From contig CAYWLJ010000003.1 in assembly GCA_964459375.1 (NCBI GenBank), positions 79,236-143,235 of the forward strand: a stretch of DNA of 64,000 nucleotides, read 5' to 3'. Below are positions 19,473-60,917 of the stretch, piece by piece. Position 1 is the stretch's first letter, and each line of letters starts with the position of its first letter. The notes beneath the pieces were generated by a model, which did not search any database, was not told where the DNA came from, and saw nothing but the letters and a program-made list of their open reading frames with translations. The position numbers and the translations under genes were made by a program. Source of the DNA: an uncultured Lentimicrobiaceae bacterium (GTDB taxonomy: Bacteria; Bacteroidota; Bacteroidia; Bacteroidales; F082).

Positions 19473-19961
19473 TATTTCAGCAATAGGGTCACACAACACA
19501 ACAAACAAGGCAGATAGAAAACCGGACAAATAACGGATCCAAAAGCTTGCTTATATTGCGAGGCAACGCAATGGACTGAAATGCGTTTAGACGCAATTAT
19601 CTGTTATCAATCAGTGATATTCGAGCAGTGTCGATATTTTTTGTTACCAAAACCTAATCTGTCTTGCGGATTTCACCTTGAGCACGAATTATTAGACCCA
19701 ATAAACTTGCTGAACCGATGATCAGCAAACATAATCGGTCTGATTTACCGGGTGTAGACAGTTGGAAAGTATTTTGCACGATAAAAAAAATTGACGGGTC
19801 GAGGCCGTAATCTGAACGCAGAACATTTTAAACTTTGTTAACACTTCTAACTTTTTTTAACATTATTTATGTTGAAGCCTCTTCAAATGTTAAATATTTA
19901 TATAGTTGATAATAAAAAACATAAACAATTTAAATGACATATATCAATATATTTTATTGTA

Positions 19962-19969
19962 TAGATTTG
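19962..19969 (+). promoter_or_regulatory. candidate -7 box (TAGATTTG) for the cytochrome cluster
   Basis: The only exact TAnnTTTG on the plus strand in the AT-rich 19.56-20.1 kb region. Implies a roughly 130-nt leader before the ATG at 20108. Confidence 0.3.
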
Positions 19970-20107
19970 GATTCAAGCAATAAAACTTCATGTTTTAGTG
20001 GGCTGGGATTTCTAAAAGCGGTGTTAACATTGCATCTGGAACAAGCTGTATTATTAAAGTGTTCCTGTATAATGAAGAGAATTGAAACCAAAACTTAACT
20101 AATATTT

Positions 20108-21163
20108 ATGAAAAGACAAATGCTTCGACTCAGCATGATGCTTTTGGCAGGTGCCATGGCATTCAGTGCATGCACAAAGGAAGGGCCGATGGGTCTATCG
20201 GGTAAAGATGGTAAAGACGGCAAAGACGGACGCGATGGGCGCGATGGTGTTGACGGCACTGCGGGTTGTATTCAGTGTCACGACAACAGCCAGGTGAACT
20301 TTGCAATCACCGCACAGTGGGAGCGCTCGACGCATGCCACTGGTGGGTTGTTTGTGCGCAACACAAACACCTGTGCCGGTTGCCACACCAGTCAGGGATT
20401 CCGCGAAATCATCCAGACCGGACTTCCGAACACAGCTGCCACTATCAACAATCCGGTTCCGCCGAATTGCTACACCTGTCATAATGTGCACACCACTTTT
20501 ACACCTGCTGACTGGGGGCTTAGCACAACTGCCAACATTACTTTCCGCCTTTTCCCCGACCGCACTCACAATTTTGGAAAAGGTAACCTTTGCGCAAGCT
20601 GTCATCAGCCCCGTCTGCCCAGCCCGATGCCTACCATTGGTGGACCGAATATAAACATTACTTCTGCCACTTGGGGACCTCATTATGGAACAGCAGGGGC
20701 TATTGTATCGGGCAAAGGTGGCTTTGAGCTAGGCACTGGATACACCAACTCGGCCCACGTTAACATGATCGGTCAGAGCTGCGTGGCATGCCACCTCACC
20801 ACAGCAAGTGGAATTAATGGCGGAGGCCACATGATGAACCTCGGCTATACCACAAGCACCGGAACAAAAGCTGTTATTACCACATCCTGCACCACATGCC
20901 ACAGTGATGATACTGCACTCAACACGCTCATTACGACAAAGAGAAATGAAATTGACACCCTCAAGATGCAGCTTGGCGATCGCCTGGTACAGATTGGCAT
21001 GCTCAACCCTACCACCCAGCGCGTTGTTACCGGCACATGGTCAGCAGCACAGGCTGGTGCCTTCATCAATTATATGCTGGTGAAGAACGACAAGGGCGCT
21101 GCATCGCACAATTTCCCTTATGCTAAGAAACTACTTGAAAATTCGCTTGCTGCCATTCAATAA
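20108..21163 (+). CDS. hexahaem c-type cytochrome lipoprotein with collagen-like N-terminal repeat
   Basis: Signal plus lipobox LAGAMAFSAC. Nine Gly-X-Y triplets. Six CxxCH: CIQCH, CAGCH, CYTCH, CASCH, CVACH, CTTCH. Confidence 0.85.
   Translation: MKRQMLRLSMMLLAGAMAFSACTKEGPMGLSGKDGKDGKDGRDGRDGVDGTAGCIQCHDNSQVNFAITAQWERSTHATGGLFVRNTNTCAGCHTSQGFREIIQTGLPNTAATINNPVPPNCYTCHNVHTTFTPADWGLSTTANITFRLFPDRTHNFGKGNLCASCHQPRLPSPMPTIGGPNINITSATWGPHYGTAGAIVSGKGGFELGTGYTNSAHVNMIGQSCVACHLTTASGINGGGHMMNLGYTTSTGTKAVITTSCTTCHSDDTALNTLITTKRNEIDTLKMQLGDRLVQIGMLNPTTQRVVTGTWSAAQAGAFINYMLVKNDKGAASHNFPYAKKLLENSLAAIQ
20183..20266 (+). repeat. collagen-like (Gly-X-Y)9 coding repeat inside the hexahaem gene
   Basis: GPM GLS GKD GKD GKD GRD GRD GVD GTA G. 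The 9-nt DNA periodicity (ggtaaagat ggtaaagac ggcaaagac ggacgcgat gggcgcgat) ends 1 residue before the first CxxCH. Confidence 0.9.
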
Positions 21164-21182
21164 CAGTCTTGCGACCTGAATT

Positions 21183-21218
21183 AAATTGAGCAGGGGCAAT
21201 CCAGTCTCTGCTCAATTT
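21183..21218 (+). terminator. perfect 11-bp hairpin between the hexahaem gene and the next gene (attenuator or partial terminator?)
   Basis: aaattgagcag / ctgctcaattt with a 14-nt loop, 20 nt after the stop at 21163. There is no strong T-run, so its function is uncertain. Confidence 0.35.
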
Positions 21219-21276
21219 CATGTTAAGCCGTTTTTACCTCAAATTCGTAACTTCGTCAATAAATTATAACAAGAAA

Positions 21277-21678
21277 ATGAAATCATTCGGCATTAACTAC
21301 TACAGGGTTTTGTTTGCCGTGATGGCTCTGGTGGCCTCAGCCGCACTCAGCTCGTGTCAGTACGAGTTTATCGAACCCGAGAGGCCAATTATTGACCCCA
21401 CTGTAGAAATCAAGTTTGCTACGGAGATCGCACCCATTTTCAGCAACAACAATGCCTGTACTGCCTGTCACCGCACCGGTGCCACACCTCCCGACCTCAC
21501 AGCCGAAAAGGCCTACAATGCCATTGTTCCTGCCTTTGTAAATACGGCAAACCCCGAACAAAGCAGCATCTATTGGTTTGCTCACCCCAACTCGACCACC
21601 CACAGCTGGAAGAAGTACACCCTTGCCGAAGCGGCACTCATACTTGAATGGATTAAACAAGGTGCCAAGAACAATTAA
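21277..21678 (+). CDS. monohaem lipoprotein, PSCyt1-like cytochrome c domain
   Basis: Start at MKSFGINYY (the track's 21220 start is less likely). Lipobox ALSSC. IAPIFSNNNACTACH ... AEAALILEWIKQGA resembles the Planctomycete cytochrome C (PSCyt1) pattern. Confidence 0.7.
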   Translation: MKSFGINYYRVLFAVMALVASAALSSCQYEFIEPERPIIDPTVEIKFATEIAPIFSNNNACTACHRTGATPPDLTAEKAYNAIVPAFVNTANPEQSSIYWFAHPNSTTHSWKKYTLAEAALILEWIKQGAKNN

Positions 21679-21686
21679 TAAATGCA

Positions 21687-22568
21687 ATGATGAAAGCAAT
21701 TATCAGCACGATTTTATTTTTCATGATTGCCAATGCTGGCATCATAGCTCAGGAGGAACAGCAGGCAGCTAAGCCCAAAGACCGCCCGGTGCGTTCGCCC
21801 TTCGAAAGTGGTTATCTGATTGACAACCAGACAACAGTTATTCCATCGCCTAAAACCCTGGAATATATTATCCAGCATAAGTTTGGCAGTATGAACAACG
21901 GTTTGACTGATCTTTTCGGGATATATGCACCCGGAGCAAACATCCGTATGGGATTGAATTATGTTCCTTACAAGAACGTTCAGGTAGGTTATGGCCTCAC
22001 AAGACTGAATATGTACAGCGACTTTTCGGTAAAGTATACTATCCTGGAACAAACCCGCCGCAATACCACACCTGTTGCAGTGGCCCTGTTTGGCAACATG
22101 GCCATCGATGGACGCAATGAAAAGGTCTATGGCAAAAACTACAGCTTTGCCAACCGTTTTTCCTACTTCAGTCAGCTCATTGTTGGCCGCCGCTTCAACG
22201 ACTGGCTGTCGGTTCAGTGCAATGCCAGCTTTACGCACTATAATGCCACCGATTCGCTCATCGACCACGATAAAATTGCTGTGGGAATCAACGGACGCAT
22301 TAAATTTTCGCCACAATCGAGCATTTTGTTCCAATACGATCATCCCCTGAAAATTAAAGATATAAGTGAGCACAGAGAGTTTACCAAGCCATCAAAACCC
22401 AACCTGGGTGTGGGATGGGAAATAAGAACAAGCACTCACGCGTTTCATATATATGTTTCGTCAGCCGATGGACTTGTTCCGCAGCACAATGCCATGTATA
22501 ACCAGAACGATTTCACGAAGGGCGATATGATGTTCGGATTTTCCATCACCCGCCTGTGGAGCTTTTAA
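21687..22568 (+). CDS. outer-membrane beta-barrel protein, DUF5777-like
   Basis: 293 aa. Signal peptide ...NAGIIAQ. Alternating beta-strand pattern. C-terminal FGFSITRLWSF (aromatic terminal residue typical of OMPs). No CxxCH. DUF number from memory. Confidence 0.65.
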   Translation: MMKAIISTILFFMIANAGIIAQEEQQAAKPKDRPVRSPFESGYLIDNQTTVIPSPKTLEYIIQHKFGSMNNGLTDLFGIYAPGANIRMGLNYVPYKNVQVGYGLTRLNMYSDFSVKYTILEQTRRNTTPVAVALFGNMAIDGRNEKVYGKNYSFANRFSYFSQLIVGRRFNDWLSVQCNASFTHYNATDSLIDHDKIAVGINGRIKFSPQSSILFQYDHPLKIKDISEHREFTKPSKPNLGVGWEIRTSTHAFHIYVSSADGLVPQHNAMYNQNDFTKGDMMFGFSITRLWSF

Positions 22569-22596
22569 ACACGTTTAACCTAATAAAACTTTTAAA

Positions 22597-23010
22597 ATGA
22601 GAAAACTCGTAATTGCAATGGCCGGATTGTTCACACTCGGCCTTCTGGCATTCGCCATGTCTCAGGAACAGAAAAAGGGCGAACCCTGGAAGATCTCAGC
22701 AGAGTACAAAAACAAGAAGAACCCACATACAGTTAATGCTGAATTTCTGAGTATCGGTAAGGATGTATATGCCAAACACTGCCGCTCATGCCACGGAAAC
22801 GCCGGCAAGGGCGATGGCCCCAAGGCACGTAACCTGAAAACACACCCCGGTGATTTTTCGGATGCCAAGTGGCATGCTTCTGTAACCGACGGTGAGGTGT
22901 ATTATATGTCAATCATCGGACGTGACGAAATGCCGAACTATGAATCCAAAATCACGGACGAAGAAGAGCGCTGGGCAATTGTTGTCTATATCCGCAGTAT
23001 GAAGAAATAA
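22597..23010 (+). CDS. class I monohaem cytochrome c
   Basis: 137 aa. Signal peptide. CRSCHGNAGKGDGP haem site and distal GRDEMP Met ligand context. Confidence 0.85.
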   Translation: MRKLVIAMAGLFTLGLLAFAMSQEQKKGEPWKISAEYKNKKNPHTVNAEFLSIGKDVYAKHCRSCHGNAGKGDGPKARNLKTHPGDFSDAKWHASVTDGEVYYMSIIGRDEMPNYESKITDEEERWAIVVYIRSMKK

Positions 23011-23021
23011 ATCGGTTAATT

Positions 23022-23061
23022 TGCTTCACAAGGGAAAGCAAATGGCTTTTCTCTTGTGAAG
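23022..23061 (+). terminator. long imperfect hairpin after the monohaem gene
   Basis: gcttcacaagggaaagc / gcttttctcttgtgaagc (10 perfect outer bp plus an inner arm), followed by acatttatt. Lies 12 nt after the stop at 23010. Confidence 0.5.
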
Positions 23062-23137
23062 CACATTTATTCTGGCATAGGGTTGCCTCATACCTTTACT
23101 GCTGTGATTCACGAATTCTGAACCAATCCCAAAACCT

Positions 23138-24094
23138 ATGACCAAGTATTTTACCTGGCTGGTAGCCTTTATGTTATTCCCATTCAATCTGCTTTTTGCA
23201 CAGCTGACCGTGGATATAGATGGCGAGCCGGCCGGGAAAACAGACAATCAGACTTGTTTCGATTGCCACGGAAAAAAGATATATTCCTACGAAAACCCAG
23301 TCACAGGCCGTATTGAGCGCAAGGCCATGAACCCCAATTTTGTTTTCGACCAACAGGCTTTTTATAGTGGGGTTCACCGCCATTTCCGGTGCACCGATTG
23401 CCATTCTCCTGATTATGAAACGTTTCCGCACAAAGCCGAGCTAAGGCTCGAAGCCAGGTATGGATGTCTGGACTGTCATGGAGGAGATCCTGCCTATGCC
23501 CATTTCCGTTTCGACGAAATTGGAGCAGAGTTCGAGAAAAGTGTGCATTTCGAGCGCCAACAGGAACGTTTCAACTGTTGGAGCTGTCATAATCCACATA
23601 CATACAAGGCTATGACACGAAGCGGTTTCAGAATTAGCGAAATTGTTCAGTACCACAACAATATGTGTGCAAGCTGCCACGACAATCCCGACCGCTTTCA
23701 AACAATCAGTGATAGCCTGAAGCTTCCGCTTGAAAAAATACATGGTTTTCTGCCAAATTTTAAACTGCACTTCAATGCCGTACGATGCATTGAGTGCCAC
23801 ACAGCTACAGCAGACACCATGTGGGTAGCCCACAACATCCTACCCAAAGAAATGGCTGTAAAACGCTGTGTTGAGTGTCATTCGAGCAATTCGCTGCTGA
23901 TGTCGTCGCTCTATAAGTATCAGAACATTGAATCGCGGAGGAGCCGTGGCACGCTTAATGCCATCATCCTCAACGAAGCATATGTGATTGGCGCCAACCG
24001 AAACATCTACCTGAACATTATGAGTATTGTAATTTTCGGCATGACCCTGCTGGGCGTGTTCATCCATATCATCTTCCGAATAAAAAAACCCTGA
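23138..24094 (+). CDS. heptahaem c-type cytochrome with C-terminal membrane anchor
   Basis: Seven CxxCH (CFDCH, CTDCH, CLDCH, CWSCH, CASCH, CIECH, CVECH). N-terminal signal. C-terminal TM helix IYLNIMSIVIFGMTLLGVFIHIIF. Confidence 0.85.
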   Translation: MTKYFTWLVAFMLFPFNLLFAQLTVDIDGEPAGKTDNQTCFDCHGKKIYSYENPVTGRIERKAMNPNFVFDQQAFYSGVHRHFRCTDCHSPDYETFPHKAELRLEARYGCLDCHGGDPAYAHFRFDEIGAEFEKSVHFERQQERFNCWSCHNPHTYKAMTRSGFRISEIVQYHNNMCASCHDNPDRFQTISDSLKLPLEKIHGFLPNFKLHFNAVRCIECHTATADTMWVAHNILPKEMAVKRCVECHSSNSLLMSSLYKYQNIESRRSRGTLNAIILNEAYVIGANRNIYLNIMSIVIFGMTLLGVFIHIIFRIKKP

Positions 24095-24095
24095 C

Positions 24096-24713
24096 ATGGC
24101 CGAAAGATTATACCTCTATCCCGTTTGGCTCCGATTCTGGCATGCCGTAAATGCGCTGATGTTTTTGGCGCTGATTGTCACAGGTATCAGCATGCAATAT
24201 TCCAATCCTGATGCGCCGCTCATCCGTTTTGATCTGGCTGTGCGCTTTCATAATATTGCCGGGGTGATTGTCACATTCAACTATCTGATATTTCTGGCAG
24301 GAAACCTTGCTACCGGCAACGGCCGGCATTACCGCATCCTCTTCGAGGGTTACTTCAGGCGTATTCTTCAGCAAATGGATTACTACCTGCGCGGGCATTT
24401 CAAGGGCGAGAAACCGCCATTCCCCGTTACAGGTGAGCGCAAATTCAACCCATTGCAGCAGGCCACCTATGTGGGCACCATGTATCTGCTGCTGCCACTG
24501 ATCATCATCACCGGTCTTGCGTTGCTTTTCCCTGAAACCATTGCCAACAGGGTTGGTAATTTCAGTGGCATTTACCTGACAGCACTGTTGCATTCAGCCG
24601 TTGGATTCCTGCTTTCCCTTTTTATGGTAATCCATATTTACTTCTCAACCATGGGTGCCACACCCTCGAGCAACTTCAAGGGAATGGCCACTGGCTGGCA
24701 CGAACCACACTGA
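24096..24713 (+). CDS. dihaem cytochrome b membrane subunit (Ni/Fe-hydrogenase/FdnI-type cytochrome b family)
   Basis: 205 aa, 4 TM helices with conserved His (RFWHAVN, VRFHNIAG, LLHSAVG, MVIHIYF). The ATG is 1 nt after the heptahaem stop (tgacatg). Confidence 0.8.
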   Translation: MAERLYLYPVWLRFWHAVNALMFLALIVTGISMQYSNPDAPLIRFDLAVRFHNIAGVIVTFNYLIFLAGNLATGNGRHYRILFEGYFRRILQQMDYYLRGHFKGEKPPFPVTGERKFNPLQQATYVGTMYLLLPLIIITGLALLFPETIANRVGNFSGIYLTALLHSAVGFLLSLFMVIHIYFSTMGATPSSNFKGMATGWHEPH

Positions 24714-29428: not shown

Positions 29429-31941
29429 ATGAATGTTGGCGAGCCAGCTAGTTCATTGATGATTAATGCTTTGCTGCTTTTCTTTCTGGCATTGTATTTT
29501 TTCAGAAAAAAGGCAGAACCCTTTGCTGAAATATTATTGTTGTTAATGCTGGCTGCCGGCTGGTGGTCATTGTTTTACGGCTTTGAACTAACGGTAAAGA
29601 ATGAGCGTTTTCTGCATTTGTTGTTTTCGGTTAAGTATCCCGCTGTTTTTACCCTTCCGGTATTCTGGCTCATATTTTCTATCAGGCTAACCGGTTACAA
29701 ACCTCCCGAAAAGTTCCACATAAGCTGGCTGTTTCTGTTGCCTATCATCAACTGGATCCTGCTTCTGAGCAATCCGAACCATCATCTTTTTTATAAAAGC
29801 GCCAGCATTTCAACAACCTCCACTTATAGCTATGTGGAGTTTGATCCCGGTCCGGCTTTTATTTTCAGCCACTTCATTTACTCAAACATCATAGTTGGAG
29901 CAGGTCTGGTGTTGCAGCTCAGAGCCTTTGCCCTGACAAAGGGAATTGCACGCAACAAGCTATCAGTCATGATTTTAGCGGTCACATTACCATTCATTTT
30001 GAACTTTGCATGGATTTTGGGGTTCAGGCCGTATGGTTTCCTTGATACCACACCATTTGGATTTACCATACTAGGCATTCTGATTGTTGCAGTGTTCGAC
30101 CGCCTCTCCGAGTTTGAACTGAGACCCCTAATACTCGACAGCCCGCTCGAACATCAGCCTGATGCACTGTTGGCCACAGACGTACAGTCCTCACGTTTGC
30201 TGTATTCCAATATCCTTGGAACTAAACTTTTCGAGTTGCTTTCATCTCAGAACGGCATTAGGCATGGCCTCGAGTACCTAAGTAAAATGCGTAACAATTA
30301 CGGGGTTTCGATCGGCAACAGGCATTATCAGGTGCTGGTTAAGGATTTCGACGAAGGTGAGGCTGGCCGCAGGCTGAAGCTTTTCAGCTTTAGGGATGTG
30401 AGCGAACTGAAACAACACGAGACTAACCTGTCGGCACTTACACAATTAACAACAACATTTGGAAACGATGCCATTGAGAATATTGGTAAATTATTAGCCA
30501 TATTGGGGGAGATTTTCGGTGCAGACGCTTGTTTCTACAATAAAAAAGTTGGCCCAATGCTGATTACGGAGACATCGTGGAATGCCCCTCCCGGTTATCA
30601 GGATGTTGACAGGGCCGAAAGGCATATTTGTAACGATGGATTATTCAGAACAGACCGGAGCTTGTTATCCAGATCAACCTGAAGCAATCATCGTATTTTC
30701 ATACCGCCCCCAATGTTCGCCGCTAAGAACTCGATTCCTATCTTGGGGTGGTTGTACGCAATGAAGGCAAGCCTATCGCCACTCTTTGTCTGGTCTTCGT
30801 TCAAGAGCGTGATTTTACCGAAAACGAGCAGCAATTTCTCAACCTGATTTCTTTTGTGGTTGCAAACGAGGAATCCCGTCAAATTCAATTGCAAAAGCTC
30901 AACGAAGCCAAAGTTAATCTGAGGGCAATACTCGAGAACTCACTCGACAGCATCTGGTTGGTGGACAGTGAGTTTCGCAATACCTATGTGAACGAGGTCT
31001 TCAAGGCAGCATACAGTAGTACATTCAACATCGAGCTTTCTGAAGGAGTGCGCATCATCGACACTTTGCCCGTATCCCTGCAGCCTATCTGGCGCAGCCG
31101 TTATGAACAGGCGCCGAAAGGGGAGCATTTTATTTTTCTCGACAGTGTGCCGGTCAGCAATGACTTAACTTTTTATATCGAAGTTTCAGTGATGCCCATT
31201 ATTGTTGAAGGCAGGGTTTCAGGCATATCTTTCTTCGGGCGCAATATAACTGACAAATACCTGGCTGAACAACGCCTCAGGCAAAGCGAGCAGCGCCTTG
31301 CCGAACTCAATGCAGCAAAGGACCGTTTGTTTTCAATCATCAGCCATGACCTAGTCAGTCCGTTCAACAACATCATTGGCCTTAGCGAAGTGATCGAAAG
31401 GATGGCTGATGAGGCTGGCAATCAAACCCTCCGTGAGTACGCAGCAAGCATTCTGCGGGTATCAAAGAACACCTTTGCCATGCTCGAGAACCTGCTGCAC
31501 TAGTCTCGCGCTCAATCAGGCAAGATGCAGTTGTTACCCGTGGTGGTATCTTTGACCGAAGTTGTTTCGCAAGAAATTGAATTCCAGCGTCATCGGCTTG
31601 ATCAGAAGTTGATAAACGTTGTCAACAAAGTGGATTTCGGACACGCTGTTATGGCTGATGCCCTTTCGGTGGCCGTGAAGGTACGAAACCTCATTTCGAA
31701 CGCCATCAGGTTCAGCTACACTGAGGGCGAGATCGTTATTCAGACTGAAAAGCTGGATGGAAATGTGCTGCTCAGGGTGCAGGATTATGGTTGTGGATTC
31801 AGTGTTGAAGATCAAAAATCGCTTTTCCAGATTGACAGGCACCCAAGCCGCAGAGGCACGCAAAACGAAACAGGAACAGGTCTTGGTCTGATGCTCTGTA
31901 AAGAGCTGTCCGAAAAAAACGGCGGGCACCTATTGGTCTAA
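29429..31941 (+). pseudogene. sensor histidine kinase (7TM-GAF-PAS-HisKA-HATPase) with one frameshift and two nonsense codons
   Basis: ORFs 29429-30682, 30748-31503 and 31525-31941 together spell one kinase: GAF ...SYLGVVVRNEGKPIATLCLVF, H-box SIISHDLVSPFNNIIGLSE, HATPase NLISNAIRFS / GTGLGLMLCKEL. Lesions are a frame change near 30640, TAA at 30724-30726, and TAG at 31501-31503 in LENLLH*SRAQSGKM, where kinases normally have Trp (TGG to TAG). Confidence 0.75.
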
Positions 31942-52645: not shown

Positions 52646-52777
52646 TTGAACCTTTTAGCCTTCACTGCAGTTATTAGTGAGGGAAAGTGAAAACAAAACG
52701 TTAAAGTTTTGATTATAATTATTTGATTGACAATTTGATGTATGAGTTCCGCGTTATCCGGCCTCAACATAAAAACC

Positions 52778-53215
52778 ATGAACAAAAAGACTTCTTTAAT
52801 GCTACTTGCTGTGGTGGTAATCGGAGCCATAGCCGCTGCCTGGGTGTATTTTTTTGTTTATAACAAAAAGCACCCTGAATTTGAGAAACTGAAACCCGCG
52901 TTCACCCTTGAGGCTGCGGAACTCTTTGAATCATACCGCAACGACAACCATGTTGCCTCTGCCCTTTACAACGGTAAAATGGTGGCTGTGCGCGGAACGC
53001 TGAGCGCCATTGAACAGACCGACGCACTGACAATCGCCGTATTTGTTATCGAACAGGGCATGTTTGGCGACGAAGGGCTGCGCGTAAGCATGCTTCCGGC
53101 GCAAGCCGAAAAACTGAAGTCAATAGCACCGGGTTCGCCAGTCAGCATCAAAGGGTATGTTACAGGTTTCAACGAGTCCGATGTAGTGCTCGAACATGGT
53201 TCAATCAATGAATAA
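52778..53215 (+). CDS. OB-fold (tRNA_anti-like) membrane-anchored protein
   Basis: MNKKTSLMLLAVVVIGAIAAAWVYF anchor. ELFESYRNDNHVASALYNGKMVAVRGTL pattern. An alternative ATG lies at 52742. Confidence 0.55.
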   Translation: MNKKTSLMLLAVVVIGAIAAAWVYFFVYNKKHPEFEKLKPAFTLEAAELFESYRNDNHVASALYNGKMVAVRGTLSAIEQTDALTIAVFVIEQGMFGDEGLRVSMLPAQAEKLKSIAPGSPVSIKGYVTGFNESDVVLEHGSINE

Positions 53216-53233: not shown

Positions 53234-53785
53234 ATGAAAACTTTGCTTTCCTTCACCATCGTATTACTGCTCAGCGTTCAGCTGAATGCTCAGCGCTATG
53301 CCACCAAAACAGGCTTCATCCGCTTCTATTCCGAAGCCCCTGCCGAAAACATCGAAGCTGTTAACCGACAGGTAAACAGTGCCCTCGACACACAAACAGG
53401 CGATTTTGTGTTTCGCCTGTTGATGAAGGGGTTTCAGTTCGAAAAGGCACTGATGCAGGAGCATTTCAATGAATACTATGTGGAGTCGCATAAATTTCCA
53501 AATGCCACATTTAATGGCAAGGTTGTCAATTCCGGAAGCATCGACTGGAGCAAAAATGGAACGCACAATGTGGAAGTAAGTGGCGATCTGACCATTAAAG
53601 GTGTAACAAGAAAGGTGACGGAAAAAGGAACCTTTGAGGTAAAAGACGGTGTAATAATTGGAAAATCAAAATTTTACGTCAAGCTCGCCGATTACGACAT
53701 CAAGATTCCAAAGGCGGTCGTAAAAAACATTGCAGAAACAATCGAAATAAATGTGGATGTTTCGCTCACTGCATTGAACAATTAG
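53234..53785 (+). CDS. YceI-family periplasmic protein
   Basis: Signal peptide. SKITFxxxxP-like FIRFYSEAPAENIEAVN, FQFEKALMQEHFNEYYVES, GDLTIKGVTRKV. Confidence 0.8.
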   Translation: MKTLLSFTIVLLLSVQLNAQRYATKTGFIRFYSEAPAENIEAVNRQVNSALDTQTGDFVFRLLMKGFQFEKALMQEHFNEYYVESHKFPNATFNGKVVNSGSIDWSKNGTHNVEVSGDLTIKGVTRKVTEKGTFEVKDGVIIGKSKFYVKLADYDIKIPKAVVKNIAETIEINVDVSLTALNN

Positions 53786-54631: not shown

Positions 54632-55282
54632 ATGGATTGGATTCAAAACGTGAGCCCGCTCGAATGGCTGGGTTATGCTGCTTCGGCGGTGGTGGCTGTT
54701 TCGCTGGCTTTAAGTTCGGTGGTTAAGTTCAGGATAATCAATCTGATTGGTGCCGCCATGTTTTCGGCCTACGGTTTTATTATTGGTGCCTATCCGGTGG
54801 GAGTGATGAACGGGCTGATTGTGTTGCTGGACTTGTATTATCTGGTCAGGATTTTTGGTGCCAAAGAGGTTTTTGAGGTGCTCGAAATCCAGCCCGACAG
54901 CCGCTACTTAAGACGATTCCTTGGGTTTCACCGCAAAGAGATTCAGCGCTTTTTCCCCAAATACCATTTTAACCCTTCAGCCGATACCATTTCGTATTTT
55001 GTGTTGCGCAATATGGAGGTGGCCGGAGTATTTGCCGGATCGCCCGACAAGGAAGGCCGGCTTAATGTGAACATCGATTATGTGATACCCCGTTTTCGCG
55101 ACTTCAAGAATGGGAAGTTTGTTTACGGCCATCTTGGGCAGAAACTGGCTGAGGCAGGCATAAAAACCATCATCACCCGGCCTGCTACAAAAACACACGC
55201 CCAATACCTGATCAGGATGGGATTCGAAAACACGCCTGAGGGTTATTATTCAAAGGCCCTTTTAATGGACATCGCTATTTAA
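54632..55282 (+). CDS. YgjV-like membrane domain fused to a soluble C-terminal domain
   Basis: EWLGYAASAVVAVSLALSS ... IINLIGAAMFSAYGFIIGAYPVGVMNGLIVLLDLYYL (3 TM helices), then a roughly 140-aa alpha/beta domain. The track start at 54626 is TTG. Confidence 0.5.
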   Translation: MDWIQNVSPLEWLGYAASAVVAVSLALSSVVKFRIINLIGAAMFSAYGFIIGAYPVGVMNGLIVLLDLYYLVRIFGAKEVFEVLEIQPDSRYLRRFLGFHRKEIQRFFPKYHFNPSADTISYFVLRNMEVAGVFAGSPDKEGRLNVNIDYVIPRFRDFKNGKFVYGHLGQKLAEAGIKTIITRPATKTHAQYLIRMGFENTPEGYYSKALLMDIAI

Positions 55283-55895
55283 GGGTGCTTAATCCCTGAA
55301 GGGCATCGGCATCGTTGGGCCTAATGAGCAGGGCTTTCTGAAACATCACTTTGGCTTCGCGGAGTTGTCCCGATTTGAGGCGGGTCCATGCCACCATAAT
55401 CACGGTGTCATAGTCGAAGGGATAAAGGTTGAGCACCTTTTCAAAAAACCGCAAAGCCTGTGCATATTCCTGTCGTCCGTAGTGAATGAGCCCCATGCGG
55501 TAGTTGGCCAGTGTATTCATGGGGTCGATTTTCAGAATGTCGCGGTATTGTTTTTCAACCTGTGCCCAATTGCCAAGGGCAGCTGCCGGAAGCACATAAC
55601 CCAGCTTAGCCTCGGTAGAAACAGGCATCAGCTCGATACTCTTCTGGTAGTAGGGCAGAGCGTCGGTAAAGCGGCCCGACATATAGTAGAGCCATCCCAG
55701 CCTCAGGTTGAGTTCGTAGCTGTCTGGCCTGTAAACATTGAGCAAAGCCTGAATGGCCTGCGGGTACTCGCCCTTGTTTTCGGCTGCGTAAGAGGTTTCG
55801 AATGCTTTGACCAGTTTTTCCTGATCCTGGGCGTAGCTGCCTGATGCAAAGGCAAGCAAAAACATCATGAAAAGGGCTTTTCTCAGAAATTCCAT
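55275..55895 (-). CDS. secreted tetratricopeptide-repeat protein
   Basis: Signal peptide MMFLLAFASGSYAQ. Four to five TPR units (YPQAIQALLNVY ... , FTDALPYYQKSIEL ... , WAQVEKQYRDILKIDP ... , YAQALRFFEKVLNLYP ... ). Confidence 0.7.
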   Translation of the reverse strand: MEFLRKALFMMFLLAFASGSYAQDQEKLVKAFETSYAAENKGEYPQAIQALLNVYRPDSYELNLRLGWLYYMSGRFTDALPYYQKSIELMPVSTEAKLGYVLPAAALGNWAQVEKQYRDILKIDPMNTLANYRMGLIHYGRQEYAQALRFFEKVLNLYPFDYDTVIMVAWTRLKSGQLREAKVMFQKALLIRPNDADALQGLSTLK

Positions 55896-57349
55896 ATCAA
55901 TCCTCCGATAATTCCATGTGAAGTTAGTGATTTAGCTGAAATCTGCAGCTGCTGCTCGTTGTCGATTTGTTCTTCCAGATAAAAACTCCTGCTCTGACGG
56001 TAGCGTATGTTGATGCCGAGCCGGGGTATAAGTTGGTGGTAGAAAGTGGCGTCACCAAACAGCATAATTTTTTCACGATGGTTTAAGGTGACATAACCCC
56101 ATTGATCGGCCATGCCATTAAGATGTCCGGCTATTGCCACTGCCGAGAGGTAGGTTTTCCGGCCAAGCCATTGCCCGGCAGAGACTTTCACAGCCGGACG
56201 CAAGCTGCCTCGTGTGCCAAGCAAAAATATTTCGGTCTGTTGCCAGGTTCTGGCATTCCCTGCCACCCGCCAGGTATAACCCAGCTGTAGTTGCAATATG
56301 CTGGTATCGTTTACCCTGCCGAGGTGTATTGCGGCTCCGGGACTTACCCCTCCAAAATGCATCACCCCTCCCAGCACAAAGCGGTAGTCGGTGGTCTGCC
56401 ATAAAGTATTACTAACACGAATGGCAGGCACATCGATGCTGAATAAGGTGGCAAGGCCGGTGTTGAGGTCAAGCCGGGCCGTGTCGGTGAATGTTTTGCT
56501 TATTTCCTGAGCATAAGGATATTCGCCCTCAAGCTTTGAGATCCCTGCCGAAGCCACCAGCATGATATGGTGCGCAGGGGCGTGGCGCATCTGAAGGTAG
56601 GCCGTGTTCTGAACTACAGAGGCCCCGGAAGTAAACACTGTCGGTTCAGTATCGATACGGTAGTAGAAATCTTTGTAATTCCCGTTGATTTCCACCCTGT
56701 CGGTTTTCATTTTCGGATTCAGGTAAGCATAGTTTTGCCCGAAAATATGAGCAAAGTGTTGCGCTCCGGCATATAACATCCAGCCGGGCTTAAGTTGCAT
56801 CCACAATCCGGCATCAGCCACTCCGCTGCTGGTAAGTCCTGACTGACTACCGTACACCCCTGCTTCGCCAGCCAGGGTTTCGAAGTTTTCCGATGTTTTG
56901 TGGTTGGATATGGTATTTCCGACATCCACATGAGCGGTCAGCAGTCCAAATCCGGAACGAATAGGCAGGTCATTGCGCTGACTTTCGGGCAGTTTGGCAA
57001 ACACCGCCCCGGCCTCAGTTGGCATAAGGCTGTATTGTCGGGCCAGCACTAAAAGGCGTCTTGCCTGTGGATCGGACGGGTTAAACTGCAACGCTTTGCT
57101 CAGATGCCTTGCGGCCTGATCGTATTTGTGAGTTTCTATCGCAGCCACTGCCAGACGCATCCGCAAAAAATAATAGTCGACACCCTGACGATGAAGCTGC
57201 CGGCCGGTGCGCAACAAATCGTCCCACCTGCCCTGCTGATAAAGCTGCCAGCTGAGGCTGTCGGGATTGAGCGAACGACTCCATGATTGCGCGCGCAATG
57301 CCATAGCAACAAACAGCAATAGCAATGTAAACAATATATTCCTAAACAC
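55883..57349 (-). CDS. outer-membrane beta-barrel protein with N-terminal TPR-like region
   Basis: Signal peptide ...AMALRAQ. Helical repeat region (about aa 25-115). Then alternating beta-strand pattern ending GIIGGLIWNF (aromatic C-terminus). Confidence 0.5.
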   Translation of the reverse strand: MFRNILFTLLLLFVAMALRAQSWSRSLNPDSLSWQLYQQGRWDDLLRTGRQLHRQGVDYYFLRMRLAVAAIETHKYDQAARHLSKALQFNPSDPQARRLLVLARQYSLMPTEAGAVFAKLPESQRNDLPIRSGFGLLTAHVDVGNTISNHKTSENFETLAGEAGVYGSQSGLTSSGVADAGLWMQLKPGWMLYAGAQHFAHIFGQNYAYLNPKMKTDRVEINGNYKDFYYRIDTEPTVFTSGASVVQNTAYLQMRHAPAHHIMLVASAGISKLEGEYPYAQEISKTFTDTARLDLNTGLATLFSIDVPAIRVSNTLWQTTDYRFVLGGVMHFGGVSPGAAIHLGRVNDTSILQLQLGYTWRVAGNARTWQQTEIFLLGTRGSLRPAVKVSAGQWLGRKTYLSAVAIAGHLNGMADQWGYVTLNHREKIMLFGDATFYHQLIPRLGINIRYRQSRSFYLEEQIDNEQQLQISAKSLTSHGIIGGLIWNF

Positions 57350-59540
57350 GCTTCAAGGTTTTAACATTTCCATTCCGCCTGATGATTACCTGCCTCAGTT
57401 GTTCGTCGTTGAAGTGCAGTTCGCAGTCTTGTGCTGCCAGAACTTTTCCGAATATTGAAAATTTCGTTTGGCTGGTCATCACAAAGCCCTCGTCGAACAA
57501 ATCGCCTTTTCTTGCGCTGTGTTCCAAACGATAGGACGTTTTGAGAAACCTGTATAAGGGTGCTACGATATCCAGTAGCATCCTCAGGGTTTTGTTCGGA
57601 AAATAATGAAGGCTGATGCTTTCGTCGAGTTGGATTCCGGGCTCAAACCCGGTGGTGAGCTGATAGGCTCCCAGAAAAAAATCGCGCAGCAGACTGTTCT
57701 CCGGTCCCTCGTAATGGGTGAAAAAAAGGATATCGGGCAGCCTCACCATCCAGGCCCTTGCACCGGTCTGGCTACATTCGAGGTAAGTATTGTTGAAAAT
57801 ATCGGTTTCAACCCGCCATACCACCTGTTCATTCGCCTCTTGCTGATCGATGACCTCGAAGCAAAGTTCCTGACCGGGCACAAAATGCAGGGCCTTGTCG
57901 AGCAGGGTTTCAGTATTGAGGTTGGATACAAATTCATTGATCCTGGGCTGACCGGATGCAATGAAATGCTTTTTGTGAGTCTTATTCAGGTATCCGGAGA
58001 ACGAATAATTGAGAGTGGCAGCACCTATTTCGGGTGCCGTCTGAAACTGCACATGCAGATGCGGGTAGGGCGAGCGCCCCGAATTGCCACAACGTCCAAT
58101 CTGCTCGCCTTTGCGCACGGGCTGTCCCGCCTTGACTGCAATACTGCCTTTTTTCAGGTGGCTTAGTTGGCTGTAGAGGCCTGTGGTGTGCCAGATAAGC
58201 ACTGTATTGCCCCAATTCTTGTTCAGGTTTATATCGCCAATGGCGTTATCGGGGATGCCGTCGGCTACCTCCTGCACCACCCCGTCGGCAGGTGCCACTA
58301 CAGGTTTGTCGAAACAATAATAATCCTCGCAGTTGAGGCCTTCGCCCCGAAAAGTTTTCCCCTCCTCATCGGTCATCTCAAAATCCCAGGCATGTCGCCA
58401 GGCGTCCTTGTGGGTGAACTCGCCATCGAAAGCCTGAGTCACTTTCCATATCCCCCAGAAAGGCAGCTTTACGGGAAAGCTGTAGAGGTGAGCAAGGCGC
58501 TTGCGGTTCACAAGGTAATTATACTGGTTTTGTTCGGGGCTGTATTGCTGGTAAAAAACCAGGGGTGGATTTTCGGTAAAACGCTCGCGCAGACGCAGCA
58601 AATAGAGCACCAGCAACACCACCACGTTGAAAGGCAGCGAATAGATGCCCATCTGCCAGTTGCCAAACACGGCATTGCCCGATGCTATCACAAACGCAGT
58701 GAGCGGAACCGCCAGCAACAGCCATATCAGCGAGCCTGCCGAAGGCACCAGAAAAAACCCTCCGATGGCAATGCTGGTGAGAATATAGTTGAAACCGATA
58801 TAGCTGTACGAAACCGACTGCATGTTGATGCCCAGCAGCTTGTATAACCACCAGGCAGTCGCAAAACCCACAACTGAAAACAGCAAGGCCTGCCGCGACC
58901 ACCTGAAAAGGGCAATGGCTACAAGCAGTCCGGCAAACAGATGGTATTGAAAAAATATGGCTCCCAGCGACCGGAAATAGATCTTGACCACCTCGGGCAG
59001 ACTGAGGTTGTTGATCCATTCATAGCCATCGAGCAGGGGAAGTCCGCCCAGCAGAAACATTTCGTTGAGTTTATATAAACCATGGGTGCTAAGCTCGAGC
59101 TGACCAAAGTCGCGGGTGCTCAAGAGGCTCATCCAGTAGGTGATCAGGAACGGCAGGCTCAGAAAAGGCAGATTGTATTTCGAAAGGATGCCTTCGAGCA
59201 GGGTGGTGACCAGCAGACTCAGCAGGGCAGCAAACAAAATAACCAGCAGAAATGCCGCGTTGAAGTGGTAATACGATCCCAGACCCAGACCAACCAGTAA
59301 GGCATTGAACCCATAAAGCCCGTCGGTGATTTTCTGTCTGTTAAGTCCACTAAGATATGCTGCAAGGTTGGCCACCACCACCGAAAGCCATCCGGCCAAT
59401 CCAGCCTGCCAGTCGAAAAAGGAAATGAGAATGAGTGTCCAGCCCAGAATTTTATCTTTCGAAAAAAGTATCTGGGTGTAGCTGTTGCGGATGCTCAGCC
59501 TGAAATGAGGGAATACCAGCCTGAACTGCGCGATGCTCAT
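57342..59540 (-). CDS. urea-transporter-family membrane domain fused to an M23 (LytM) peptidase domain and an unknown C-terminal domain
   Basis: N-terminal roughly 330 aa polytopic with NSYTQILFS ... GLYGFNALLVGLGLG (UT family). Middle has GNTVLIWHTTGLYSQLSHLKKGS ... GEQIGRCGNSGRSPYPHLHVQ (M23 HxH). About 200-aa tail. Confidence 0.75.
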   Translation of the reverse strand: MSIAQFRLVFPHFRLSIRNSYTQILFSKDKILGWTLILISFFDWQAGLAGWLSVVVANLAAYLSGLNRQKITDGLYGFNALLVGLGLGSYYHFNAAFLLVILFAALLSLLVTTLLEGILSKYNLPFLSLPFLITYWMSLLSTRDFGQLELSTHGLYKLNEMFLLGGLPLLDGYEWINNLSLPEVVKIYFRSLGAIFFQYHLFAGLLVAIALFRWSRQALLFSVVGFATAWWLYKLLGINMQSVSYSYIGFNYILTSIAIGGFFLVPSAGSLIWLLLAVPLTAFVIASGNAVFGNWQMGIYSLPFNVVVLLVLYLLRLRERFTENPPLVFYQQYSPEQNQYNYLVNRKRLAHLYSFPVKLPFWGIWKVTQAFDGEFTHKDAWRHAWDFEMTDEEGKTFRGEGLNCEDYYCFDKPVVAPADGVVQEVADGIPDNAIGDINLNKNWGNTVLIWHTTGLYSQLSHLKKGSIAVKAGQPVRKGEQIGRCGNSGRSPYPHLHVQFQTAPEIGAATLNYSFSGYLNKTHKKHFIASGQPRINEFVSNLNTETLLDKALHFVPGQELCFEVIDQQEANEQVVWRVETDIFNNTYLECSQTGARAWMVRLPDILFFTHYEGPENSLLRDFFLGAYQLTTGFEPGIQLDESISLHYFPNKTLRMLLDIVAPLYRFLKTSYRLEHSARKGDLFDEGFVMTSQTKFSIFGKVLAAQDCELHFNDEQLRQVIIRRNGNVKTLKRV

Positions 59541-60898
59541 AGGTCGAAATGGGCCAGATGAGCAGGGATGAGTTCCTGACTGGTGAGGGTTTCGAGGGTT
59601 TCGGCTCTGCGGATCAGGTGCTTGCCTCCTTCTTCATCGATAAGGATTACGTTGGGCCTGAGGGTGATAAACTGCAACCATTGGGTCATATTGTAAGCAC
59701 CCACATGATGCACTACCACGTGATCGCCCCGGTTGAGCAGGGGCAGGTTGATGTTTTCGCGCACAACGTCGATATTCATGCAAAGCGGCCCGTAAAGTGC
59801 GGTGTCCTCAGTGTAGGAAGTGATGGGTTGGGCCGGGGTGATTAGATGGTCATACCAAAAAGCAGTGAATAGGGTGTTTACACCAATGTCGAGAATGGTA
59901 GCCCTTCGTCCATCGCTCAGGCGCTTATTGGCCAGCACGGTTCCAAGCAACCAGGCTGCATCGTCGATCAGGGCGCGGCCCGATTCGATGATAAGTACTG
60001 GCGATGTTTTCGGGCGGTAATCGCTGTTCATCAGGGCCGAAGTGATGGCCTCGGCAAAGTCGTTAATCGATGGGCTGATGTCGGTGCCCGGCAGGTAAGA
60101 GCCTTTAAGGGTGTTTTTGCTTGCAAATCCCCCTCCGATATCGATGTATTTGATTTCGTGGTTGTACTTGTTCAGCACACTCTGGGCAAGATGGGCCAGC
60201 TTGGAAGCTGCCACAGCATAGGCGTTGGGCGAGAGCATGAAAGTGCCGATATGGGTGTGCAGCCCTACCAGATCCATCAGCCCCGAAAACATGATCTTGT
60301 TGAGCGCATCCCAGGCCTGCCCGTTTTCGTAGTTAAAGCCAAAACGATCCCACATAGGATAGACTCCGGTGTCCATGTTCACCCTGATGGCAACCCGCGG
60401 CCGTAACTTCGAATCCCGGGCAATGTCCTGCAGCAGGTAAAGCTCATCCAGATGGTCAATGTGAATCAGCGAGTTGTTGGTAATGGCCTTTCGCAGATCT
60501 GCTTCGGTTTTGTCAGGCCCATTGAAAATAATTTTACCTCCGGGCACTCCGTTGCGAATGGCTTTATCGTACTCGAATCCTGAAACTACCTCGGCCCACG
60601 AGCCCTCCTGATGATAGATATTGCAAATGGCATCGAGGTAGTTGGTTTTATAACTCCATGCAAACTGCACTTTTGGATAACGGGTTTGAAATGCCTGTCG
60701 CGCATTACGGTAATTCTTGCGCAGCTTTTTTTCCGACACCACAAACAGCGGTGAACCAAACTCCTTGATAAGGTCTTTAACCATCAGTCCTTCAATGGAC
60801 TGGGTGGGATCCTGTGCCGACCTCATTCCGAATTTGTTAGGCATATTGCCCTCAAGTTTCTTGATGACAGGTCTTTCGTAAATTTTTCTCGTTGGCAT
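59537..60898 (-). CDS. PLP-dependent decarboxylase, fold type III (Orn/DAP/Arg decarboxylase family)
   Basis: FGSPLFVVSE, PLP-Lys context FAWSYKTNY, HTHIGT, DIGGGFAS, IIESGRALI, YGPLCMNIDV. The ATG at 60898 avoids overlap with the upstream gene (track start is 60967). Confidence 0.8.
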   Translation of the reverse strand: MPTRKIYERPVIKKLEGNMPNKFGMRSAQDPTQSIEGLMVKDLIKEFGSPLFVVSEKKLRKNYRNARQAFQTRYPKVQFAWSYKTNYLDAICNIYHQEGSWAEVVSGFEYDKAIRNGVPGGKIIFNGPDKTEADLRKAITNNSLIHIDHLDELYLLQDIARDSKLRPRVAIRVNMDTGVYPMWDRFGFNYENGQAWDALNKIMFSGLMDLVGLHTHIGTFMLSPNAYAVAASKLAHLAQSVLNKYNHEIKYIDIGGGFASKNTLKGSYLPGTDISPSINDFAEAITSALMNSDYRPKTSPVLIIESGRALIDDAAWLLGTVLANKRLSDGRRATILDIGVNTLFTAFWYDHLITPAQPITSYTEDTALYGPLCMNIDVVRENINLPLLNRGDHVVVHHVGAYNMTQWLQFITLRPNVILIDEEGGKHLIRRAETLETLTSQELIPAHLAHFDL

Positions 60899-60917
60899 GA
60901 TGCAATAATTAACGGTT

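Follow-up and report, generated by a model that had tools for sequence, protein, structure and literature searches.

A conserved gene cluster with fifteen c-type haem sites, a DUF5777 barrel and a CbcBA-type cytochrome pair in Bacteroidales, and its possible role in extracellular respiration

The gene cluster and its surroundings

The stretch of DNA analysed in this study, referred to as the window in the following, comprises 64,000 nucleotides (nt) of contig CAYWLJ010000003.1 of an uncultured Lentimicrobiaceae bacterium (Bacteroidota). It contains a cluster of six open reading frames (ORFs), g1 to g6, which are all located on the + strand at positions 20108-24713 and encode c-type cytochromes, a barrel protein of the family DUF5777 and a cytochrome b. 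A sequence-only reading of the window had described six co-directional genes behind an AT-rich region. The ORFs were recovered where that reading had placed them, and the AT-rich spacer, with a GC (guanine plus cytosine) content far below the ~50% of the window, was confirmed as well. The following features were distinguished (bp, base pairs; aa, amino acids; TM, transmembrane):

19530..20107, + strand: AT-rich upstream spacer (578 bp, 32.5% GC), a candidate regulatory region; orthologous spacers hold an FNR-type box
20108..21163, + strand: g1, hexahaem cytochrome c lipoprotein (351 aa, 6 CxxCH, lipobox ...AFSAC)
21220..21678, + strand: g2, small monohaem cytochrome c lipoprotein (1 CxxCH)
21687..22568, + strand: g3, DUF5777 barrel without haem motif, C-terminus RLWSF
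22597..23010, + strand: g4, class I monohaem cytochrome c (1 CxxCH), proposed soluble periplasmic shuttle
23022..23063, + strand: g4-g5 hairpin with a 17-bp stem followed by a T-rich tail
23138..24094, + strand: g5, CbcA-type protein with 7 CxxCH, a signal peptide and one C-terminal TM helix
24096..24713, + strand: g6, CbcB-type dihaem cytochrome b with 4 TM helices
24765..25499, + strand: g7, 244-aa lipoprotein, 3' of g6

The intergenic gaps from g1 to g6 amount to 56, 8, 28, 127 and 1 nt. According to an alignment of homologues, the true start of g2 is probably Met19 (~21274), which gives the lipobox LSSC, and comparison with homologues places the true start of g3 at Met2. The motif count yielded 6, 1, 0, 1, 7 and 0 CxxCH in g1 to g6 and no CxxCK or long-spacer haem motif in any of them; the fifteen haem sites of the sequence-only reading were thus found again, and the two b haems of g6 bring the total of the cluster to 17. 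The labels given to the genes in that reading agree with Pfam for g1 and g3 to g6, whereas the label of g2 as PSCyt1-like is loosely supported (Cytochrom_C, E 0.09). Outside the cluster, no protein with a CxxCH motif is encoded in the 64-kb window. The flanking genes are housekeeping genes (asparagine synthase, a deoxyhypusine synthase-like protein, S46 and S9 peptidases, RNase H), and an Rfam scan of the window returned nothing.

Conservation and neighbouring genes in Bacteroidota

For a survey of related loci, one genome per species was scanned with an alignment of g3 relatives as anchor. This yielded 80 loci, all of them from Bacteroidota, whose flanking ORFs were clustered, and each family present in several loci was annotated. 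The complete set of six genes occurs in 61 of the 80 loci, and most of the other loci are interrupted by contig ends. Two gene orders, 123456(7) and 234561, were found; g7 is present in 30 loci. Where the loci were assigned below the phylum, they belong mostly to Bacteroidales (Lentimicrobiaceae, Prolixibacteraceae, Mariniphaga, Maribellus, Bacteroidales bacterium 6E, Carboxylicivirga and many metagenome-assembled genomes, MAGs), and the names of the MAGs often indicate groundwater, sediment, digester or hydrothermal sources. An arrangement of this kind is far beyond chance, and the six genes clearly travel together. Since the flanks vary with the lineage, the cluster behaves as a self-contained unit.

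No catalytic subunit or reductase gene accompanies the cluster, as had been noticed from the window itself. The window holds no gene for a molybdopterin, copper or CxxCK enzyme, and among the recurrent neighbours in the 80 loci no nos, nrf (CxxCK), catalytic ttr/psr/phs, copper or molybdopterin gene is syntenic. A known terminal enzyme that stands consistently alongside, and that would reduce the cluster to an accessory, was therefore not found in the orthologous loci.

The recurrent neighbours comprise instead genes that are related to electron transfer and its control. A regulator gene of the Crp/Fnr family is located directly upstream in 35 loci. A 499-aa membrane-anchored hexahaem protein of the NapC/NirT type, which is ImcH-like, is encoded near the cluster in 25 loci, CcsBA/ResB genes for cytochrome c maturation in about 12, and an NrfC-like iron-sulfur (FeS) protein together with an NrfD-like membrane protein in 6-7. 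Single loci add a CbcL-like 19-haem protein fused to cytochrome b (L064), a 9-haem protein bearing the sorting domain Por_Secre_tail of the type IX secretion system (T9SS; L053) and a CxxCH-containing Reeler protein, likewise with a T9SS sorting domain (L075). The other recurrent neighbours (asparagine synthase, nitroreductase, M28 peptidase, gldKLMN and a block of genes for a tetratricopeptide repeat (TPR) protein, a urea transporter/M23 peptidase, a decarboxylase and an ATP-grasp protein) represent housekeeping or lineage synteny. The T9SS core genes gldK, gldL, gldM and gldN are situated immediately 5' of the cluster in 7 loci (L007, L008, L012, L029 and others; ~1.2-6.3 kb in locus coordinates). 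This adjacency may be mere lineage synteny; it deserves mention since some relatives hold T9SS-sorted multihaem cytochromes beside the cluster.

The most conserved core among the loci is formed by the pair g2-g3 and g4, not by g5/g6. In four loci of Carboxylicivirga (L045, L048, L050 and L051; ~11.5-13 kb), g2-g3-g4 occur without g1, g5 and g6. There the trio is followed by a gene for a chemoreceptor (HAMP and MCP signalling domains) with one CxxCH motif, which hints at a link between redox taxis and the trio in this genus.

Regulation

Upstream of the operon, a TTGAT-N4-ATCAA box with at most one mismatch was detected in 56 of 67 loci, and about 40 of these boxes are perfect. They lie mostly at -95 to -182 relative to the first start codon. 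In the control, a box of the same stringency was present in 14 of 202 other intergenic segments. These FNR-type boxes and the adjacent Crp/Fnr genes in relatives point to a control that is predicted to respond to oxygen or the redox state, as expected of a respiratory branch. No gene for a sigma54/BccR-type regulator was found in the window, and orthologous loci have the Crp/Fnr regulator and FNR boxes instead. Two elements were located in the upstream spacer of the window:

19934..19947, + strand: candidate FNR/CRP-type box ATGACATATATCAA, 2 mismatches to TTGAT-N4-ATCAA, 174 nt before the ATG of g1
19962-19969, + strand: -7-like motif TAGATTTG, downstream of ATGACATATATCAA

The candidate box occupies the position at which relatives have perfect boxes, and TAGATTTG resembles TAnnTTTG, the Bacteroidetes -7 motif. 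A scan for sigma70-type promoters gave hits at or under shuffle expectation and was uninformative.

A second point of control may lie between g4 and g5. This spacer is strongly structured (~-0.3 kcal/mol per nt) in most orthologous loci, and it is here that the extra genes of relatives (ImcH-like, second g4 copy) are inserted. Judged by its stem and T-rich tail, the hairpin may be a partial terminator or an element stabilising the mRNA, and the conserved structure of the spacer hints that g1-g4 and g5-g7 are expressed differently.

The inner-membrane pair g5/g6 and the cytochrome g4

The seven haem motifs of g5 belong to multihaem families of the c7/c3 type in Pfam, and seven distal histidines, one for each haem, are invariant, which presumably makes the haems bis-His ligated. 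The C-terminal TM helix of g5 and the four TM helices of g6, both part of the sequence-only reading, agree with hydropathy; the helix of g5 comprises residues 294-312 and contains His310, which is invariant in 68 sequences, and g6 starts directly behind the stop codon of g5. The protein g6 matches the Pfam family Ni_hydr_CYTB (E 1.9e-25), and its best NCBIfam entry is PRK15006, a cytochrome b subunit of thiosulfate reductase, with 176 bits, which is below the cut-off of 204; relatives of g6 are publicly named 'thiosulfate reductase cytochrome b-like'. His16, His52, His166 and His180 are invariant and form a 1+1+2 pattern, which is presumably that of the FdnI/HydC-type dihaem b subunits. A sequence search of the PDB returned nothing for g6 and a weak multihaem/NrfB-type similarity for g5.

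Similar to this pair is the inner-membrane bc-type quinol oxidase CbcBA of Geobacter sulfurreducens, which functions in extracellular respiration at low potential (10.1101/2021.04.15.440034). The b subunit of CbcBA is usually annotated as thiosulfate reductase-like, cbcBA has been proposed as a marker of extracellular electron transfer (EET), and homologous clusters were described in the Bacteroidetes Prolixibacter, Marinilabiliales and Labilibaculum (10.1101/2021.04.15.440034). It is probable that g5 and g6 belong to the CbcBA family, a likeness seen in the architecture rather than in an alignment to the Geobacter proteins. The earlier view of a cytochrome b and a multihaem c protein as a module on the quinone pool is strengthened in this way, and the literature ties this type of module to extracellular respiration. 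A homologous pair occurs also in Zoogloea (35% identity and E 1e-56 for g5, 45% identity and E ~1e-55 for g6), where it adjoins homologues of MtrB/PioB and DmsE and a small cytochrome c; g4 showed no similarity to this small cytochrome.

The protein g4 itself matches Cytochrome_CBB3 (E 6.4e-12) and Cytochrom_C (E 2e-11, 45.5 bits). In 78 sequences His66 is conserved in 100% and Met112 in 94%, which identifies g4 as a His/Met-ligated class I cytochrome c. Several relatives carry a duplicate of its gene.

A quinol dehydrogenase-type pair and a donor-type class I cytochrome with similarity to Cytochrome_CBB3 could also form a quinol:cytochrome c branch that replaces bc1 or alternative complex III. 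The cytochrome g4 would then feed a periplasmic enzyme encoded elsewhere, for example a cbb3 oxidase, a clade II NosZ or a nitrite or peroxide reductase, and the lipoproteins and the barrel would be accessory. To our knowledge, Bacteroidota are mostly without bc1. FNR control would suit a microaerobic or denitrifying respiration, and some loci add an NrfC/NrfD-like quinol module. However, the core that is most conserved is g2-g3 with g4 and not g5/g6, no terminal enzyme is syntenic, and a barrel, two lipoprotein cytochromes and T9SS-sorted cytochromes are superfluous for a donor chain that stays within the periplasm. We therefore regard this explanation as quite unlikely.

The outer-membrane pair g2/g3

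The assignment of g3 to DUF5777 (PF19089) is unambiguous (E 1.3e-74; 251 bits, cut-off 23.1). In the AlphaFold2 (AF2) model (predicted local distance difference test, pLDDT, 85.1) g3 has 12 strands. Of the two strand registers, one is hydrophobic and the other contains many invariant charged or polar residues; the C-terminal residue is a phenylalanine. In the model this suggests a water-filled, solute-specific lumen, which may be plugged by the highly conserved non-barrel segment preceding the strands. The nearest structures in Foldseek are FapF (5o68), the COG4313 channel (4rl8), OmpG, KdgM and NanC, which are barrels of 12 to 14 strands. As modelled with 12 strands, g3 would be unable to sheath a multihaem cytochrome as the 26-stranded MtrB does. 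The 'complete' path across the outer membrane, as the sequence-only reading had called it, could not be upheld for this reason: a 12-stranded channel of the FapF/COG4313/KdgM kind cannot house a multihaem cytochrome.

The barrel g3 has g2 as its invariable partner. The haem motif of g2 is kept in all of its orthologues. In 11 loci (L059-L062, L071, L073, L075, L076, L078, L080 and L081) it has the form CX4CH instead of CX2CH, and in these forms a methionine replaces the putative distal histidine at the identical alignment position. The retention of the motif and the exchange of the ligand argue for g2 being a real haem protein. Several loci with CX4CH forms also hold NrfC/NrfD-like and ResB/CcsA genes, but this link is not exclusive. 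A function of ResB/CcsA as dedicated lyases for CX4CH forms of g2 was considered and dropped, because ccs genes accompany CX2CH forms too.

A larger, paralogous DUF5777 subfamily exists in Bacteroidota. It scores 329 bits on PF19089, above the score of g3, and its barrels are encoded in conserved sets whose other products are a PSCyt1 cytochrome, a small cytochrome c similar to g2, a tRNA_anti-like OB protein and a YceI-like protein. Since g2-like cytochromes also partner these barrels, a small cytochrome c and a DUF5777 barrel together make up the evolutionarily stable core.

The hexahaem lipoprotein g1

The protein g1 matches the domain II/IV family of MtrC/MtrF (PF22113) with 47.6 bits (gathering score 30) and several further multihaem families. 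Its mature N-terminus is C-T-K-E-G-P, and this motif is kept in 53 of 75 homologues. Between the lipid-bearing cysteine and the first haem motif, residues 26-55 (20183-20272) form 10 collagen-like G-x-y triplets rich in GKD and GRD. At least six triplets are present in 74 of the 75 homologues (median 9). The run suggests a trimeric stalk, to judge from its repeat pattern, which would be unusual in a cytochrome. A homologue with 30% identity over the full length, JNFKJAOJ_00301, is encoded in an anode-enriched Bacteroidota MAG, and it also has the collagen-like run.

The AF2 model of g1 was built without haems and reached a pLDDT of 80.7. Its best fold match in the PDB is OcwA (6i5b; E 2.4e-4, TMq 0.44, ~20% identity over ~300 columns), reportedly a nonahaem terminal reductase at the cell surface of Thermincola potens. 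Further down follow octahaem and pentahaem nitrite reductases (E 0.05-0.5) and an S-layer undecahaem cytochrome.

The nitrite reductase folds, together with a weak similarity of residues 212-300 to cytochrome c552/NrfA (E 2.8e-4 in Pfam, E 0.004 in the PDB sequence search), could mean that g1 is a catalytic enzyme of the NrfA/octahaem family acting on nitrite, hydroxylamine or a sulfur oxyanion, and that the cluster is an ordinary periplasmic reductase system. OcwA, too, is said to reduce nitrite and hydroxylamine. Yet the scores of g1 to NrfA families are far under the cut-offs, it has six haems and no CxxCK, and the N-terminal catalytic part is missing. Moreover, the distal histidines His76, His128, His192, His241 and His334 are invariant and His217 is conserved in at least 90% of the sequences, so that six conserved distal histidines face six haems and no open catalytic site is evident. 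A catalytic role of g1 appears very improbable on these grounds.

The lipoprotein g7 and further features of the window

For g7, no Pfam family and no relative in the PDB sequence search was found. The protein possibly has an OB-like C-terminal half and possesses a His-rich linker, and a comparison by hhalign with the tRNA_anti-like OB protein was weak (E 0.0038, probability 8.7%). It may be that g7 is the counterpart of the OB protein in the paralogous DUF5777 sets, a weak suggestion drawn from the sequence.

The window encodes a tRNA_anti-like OB protein with an N-terminal TM helix (52742-53215) beside a YceI-like protein (53234-53785). Elsewhere in Bacteroidota this OB/YceI pair is flanked by a g2-like cytochrome c on one side and a paralogous DUF5777 barrel on the other; in the window neither of them accompanies it. 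Five genes on the - strand (55275-61970) encode a TPR protein, a 488-aa protein, a urea-transporter/M23 peptidase fusion, a decarboxylase dependent on pyridoxal phosphate (PLP) and an ATP-grasp protein. This five-gene block is located directly 3' of g7 in 10-12 related genomes and 30 kb off in the window. Finally, a sensor histidine kinase is present as three consecutive ORFs (29429-31941; HisKA_7TM, GAF/PAS/HisKA and the remainder), which could represent a pseudogene, frameshifts or an assembly error.

Proposed function of the cluster

From these observations, it is proposed with a probability of about 0.5 that the cluster serves a metal or shuttle respiration which is extracellular or proximal to the outer membrane. 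It would constitute a respiratory branch that is induced anaerobically or microaerobically, that links the menaquinone pool to partners at or beyond the outer membrane, and that has cytochromes, not an enzyme, at its end. The most likely acceptors would be Fe(III)/Mn(IV) phases, chelated metals, humic-type shuttles or electrodes. Menaquinol would be oxidised by g6/g5, and g4, perhaps together with g1, would then carry the electrons through the periplasm to the outer membrane. Since g3 is too narrow for a haem wire, a crossing similar to that of Cyc2 is proposed, in which the haem of g2 would be placed at the mouth of the g3 channel and the channel would admit soluble or chelated redox species. 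Alternatively or additionally, g1 might be flipped to the surface, where the stalk would present its haem domain to minerals and g1 would act as terminal reductase.

The OcwA-like fold of g1 and the ImcH-like, CbcL-like and T9SS-sorted multihaem cytochromes in relatives point to EET. The ImcH-like 499-aa protein is 41% identical to JNFKJAOJ_00296 of the anode-enriched Bacteroidota MAG, and relatives from the Marinilabiliales reduce oxides of Mn and Fe (PMC5760507). With respect to EET, the sequence-only reading was supported by the missing enzyme, the CbcBA-type module and the accessory genes of the EET type; its complete outer-membrane path was not.

More specifically, the DUF5777 barrel and the haem c lipoprotein could form a minimal redox gate in the outer membrane, a split and smaller analogue of Cyc2, which would be coupled to the collagen-stalked and possibly trimeric g1 and to the CbcBA-type oxidase. 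This is put forward tentatively and as the more doubtful of the two proposals.

Several points weigh against an outward path to extracellular acceptors. The 12-strand model of g3 permits no modelled chain of haems across the outer membrane. Class I cytochromes with His/Met ligation, such as g4, usually have a high potential and fit awkwardly into a chain that runs downhill to Fe(III) oxides. The trio g2-g3-g4 stands alone in Carboxylicivirga, so this core module needs no CbcBA. In the window itself, the box ATGACATATATCAA is degenerate with its 2 mismatches, and a search of the window for an FNR-type regulator, ImcH and CcsBA found none of them; NrfCD and a second DUF5777 gene were likewise looked for in the window and not found. 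The export signal of surface lipoproteins in Bacteroidota follows the rule C-X-K-(D/E)2 (PMC5080379). It is half matched by C-T-K-E-G-P of g1, with lysine at +3 and one acidic residue, and the residues after the cysteine are C-Q-Y-E-F-I-E in g2 and C-G-N-Q-Q in g7. With no more than this partial match in g1 and g2, we make no claim that these lipoproteins are exposed at the surface.

Since electron flow through cytochromes is reversible, the same chain could also operate inward, in Fe(II) oxidation or electron uptake after the logic of Cyc2 or Mto. Fe2+ or another reduced species would enter g3 and be oxidised by the haem of g2, g4 would pass the electrons to a high-potential oxidase or reductase encoded elsewhere, and g5/g6, together with g1, would return some of them to the quinone pool. 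The combination of a barrel with a monohaem protein, a class I shuttle and a quinone module mirrors Cyc2-Cyc1 (10.1101/228056) and MtoAB-MtoD-CymA (PMC4412085). Further support comes from the Zoogloea homologues of g5/g6, which lie in a Mto-like cluster with a small monohaem cytochrome, and from Labilibaculum relatives, which possess genes for cbb3 and Cox oxidases. Genes for microaerobic oxidases, too, are driven by FNR-type boxes. The His/Met ligation of g4 and the isolated trio in Carboxylicivirga, a facultative anaerobe in which the trio lies beside the chemoreceptor with its haem motif, also fit the inward direction. On the other hand, the ImcH-like, CbcL-like and CbcBA-type genes represent the outward-respiration set of Geobacter (10.1101/2021.04.15.440034), relatives are enriched on anodes (PMC8258643), most carriers are MAGs of anoxic habitats according to their record titles, and in most loci no oxidase, RuBisCO or bc1 genes lie beside the cluster. 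Inward operation is therefore considered unlikely, although it is the strongest of the alternatives, and respiration towards external acceptors is retained as the preferred function.

Possible significance

Bacteroidales occur in large numbers in anoxic sediments, groundwater, digesters and electrode biofilms, and no machinery for electron export is known to have been defined for this group. The operon is a conserved and apparently FNR-controlled candidate for it, which occurs in 61 or more species-level genomes and in over 1000 protein clusters. The pair of a DUF5777 barrel and a haem lipoprotein extends further, to thousands of protein clusters in Bacteroidota and two paralogous contexts. 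If the proposed function is true, the cluster would yield marker genes by which extracellular respiration or electron uptake could be recognised in Bacteroidota, assign a function to a DUF family and add a third solution for crossing the outer membrane besides the sheathed wires of the Mtr type and Cyc2. If the redox gate is real as well, it would, together with g1 and the CbcBA-type oxidase, represent a new EET architecture in diderms and account for the reduction of metals by 'fermentative' Bacteroidales and for their enrichment on anodes. Even if the conduit is not, the cluster would still define a widespread quinol:cytochrome c branch.

The literature search found no papers on DUF5777 and no description of the six-gene unit or of a collagen-stalked cytochrome, and a paper on deep-sea chitin and EET contained nothing on cytochromes of Bacteroidota.

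Comparison with known systems

Already known are cbcBA homologues in Bacteroidetes and a related cluster in an anode MAG, whereas the pair of a DUF5777 barrel and a haem lipoprotein is undescribed. The statement of the sequence-only reading that the path is built from parts unlike Mtr/Pcc accordingly holds for the outer-membrane part; the inner-membrane pair and g1 are of known kinds.

With CbcBA the cluster shares a periplasmic heptahaem c subunit (g5), which has a single C-terminal TM anchor carrying a histidine, and an adjacent gene for a separate dihaem b subunit with four TM helices and 'thiosulfate reductase'-like annotation (g6). Unlike in CbcBA, all four histidines for the b haems are located in g6, and His310 of g5 comes in addition, whereas the Geobacter paper describes a 3+1 distribution. 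The apparent control is of the FNR type and not by sigma54/BccR, and the order of genes is c before b, the Geobacter order being taken from the name cbcBA alone.

Like OcwA, g1 occurs in a setting without a separate catalytic enzyme, and its model suggests a multihaem fold related to NrfA, to which OcwA also belongs. It differs from OcwA in having six haems instead of nine, all of them apparently bis-His ligated, and in being lipid-anchored, with a collagen-like stalk, in a diderm host.

An inner-membrane quinol module, a periplasmic shuttle, a barrel with cytochromes and a multihaem lipoprotein are also the elements of MtrCAB, MtoAB-MtoD-CymA and Pcc. However, the cluster has neither a 26-stranded sheath nor an inserted decahaem protein of the MtrA/MtoA type, and the quinol module is CbcBA-type and not CymA. 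Unlike the decahaem proteins MtrC and OmcA, g1 has six haems and OcwA as its best fold, despite the match to PF22113 above the gathering score. As its barrel with 12 strands falls short of the large sheath of about 20-26 strands, the cluster is not a member of the Mtr/Pcc systems.

Ouboter and colleagues described a putative EET cluster of seven genes in the anode-enriched MAG 'Bacteroidetes_1' of the class UBA10030 (PMC8258643). It has in common with the loci described here a homologue of g1 (30% identity, collagen-like N-terminus) and, in relatives, the ImcH-like protein (41%) and the CbcL-like 19-haem/b fusion (29%). It differs in a larger barrel of ~440 aa, a porin to which g3 has no similarity, in the absence of equivalents of g2, g3, g4 and g5/g6, and in its origin from a different class of Bacteroidota. 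In the paralogous DUF5777 sets, too, a small cytochrome c similar to g2 accompanies the barrel, but these sets contain a YceI-like protein and no multihaem cytochromes or cytochrome b.

The closest parallel for the outer-membrane part is Cyc2 of Fe(II) oxidisers, in which an N-terminal monohaem domain is fused to a 16-strand barrel (10.1101/228056). In both cases one haem c is combined with a small barrel whose lumen offers too little room for a haem wire, and a periplasmic class I cytochrome follows. In contrast to Cyc2, the lipoprotein g2 and the barrel g3 are encoded by separate genes, 8 nt apart, g3 has 12 strands instead of 16, and its fold neighbours are FapF, COG4313 and KdgM and not OprO/OprP. 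The trio g2-g3-g4, being unfused and 12-stranded, is thus not a member of the Cyc2 family, but as far as the described architectures can be compared, it would work most like Cyc2/Cyc1.

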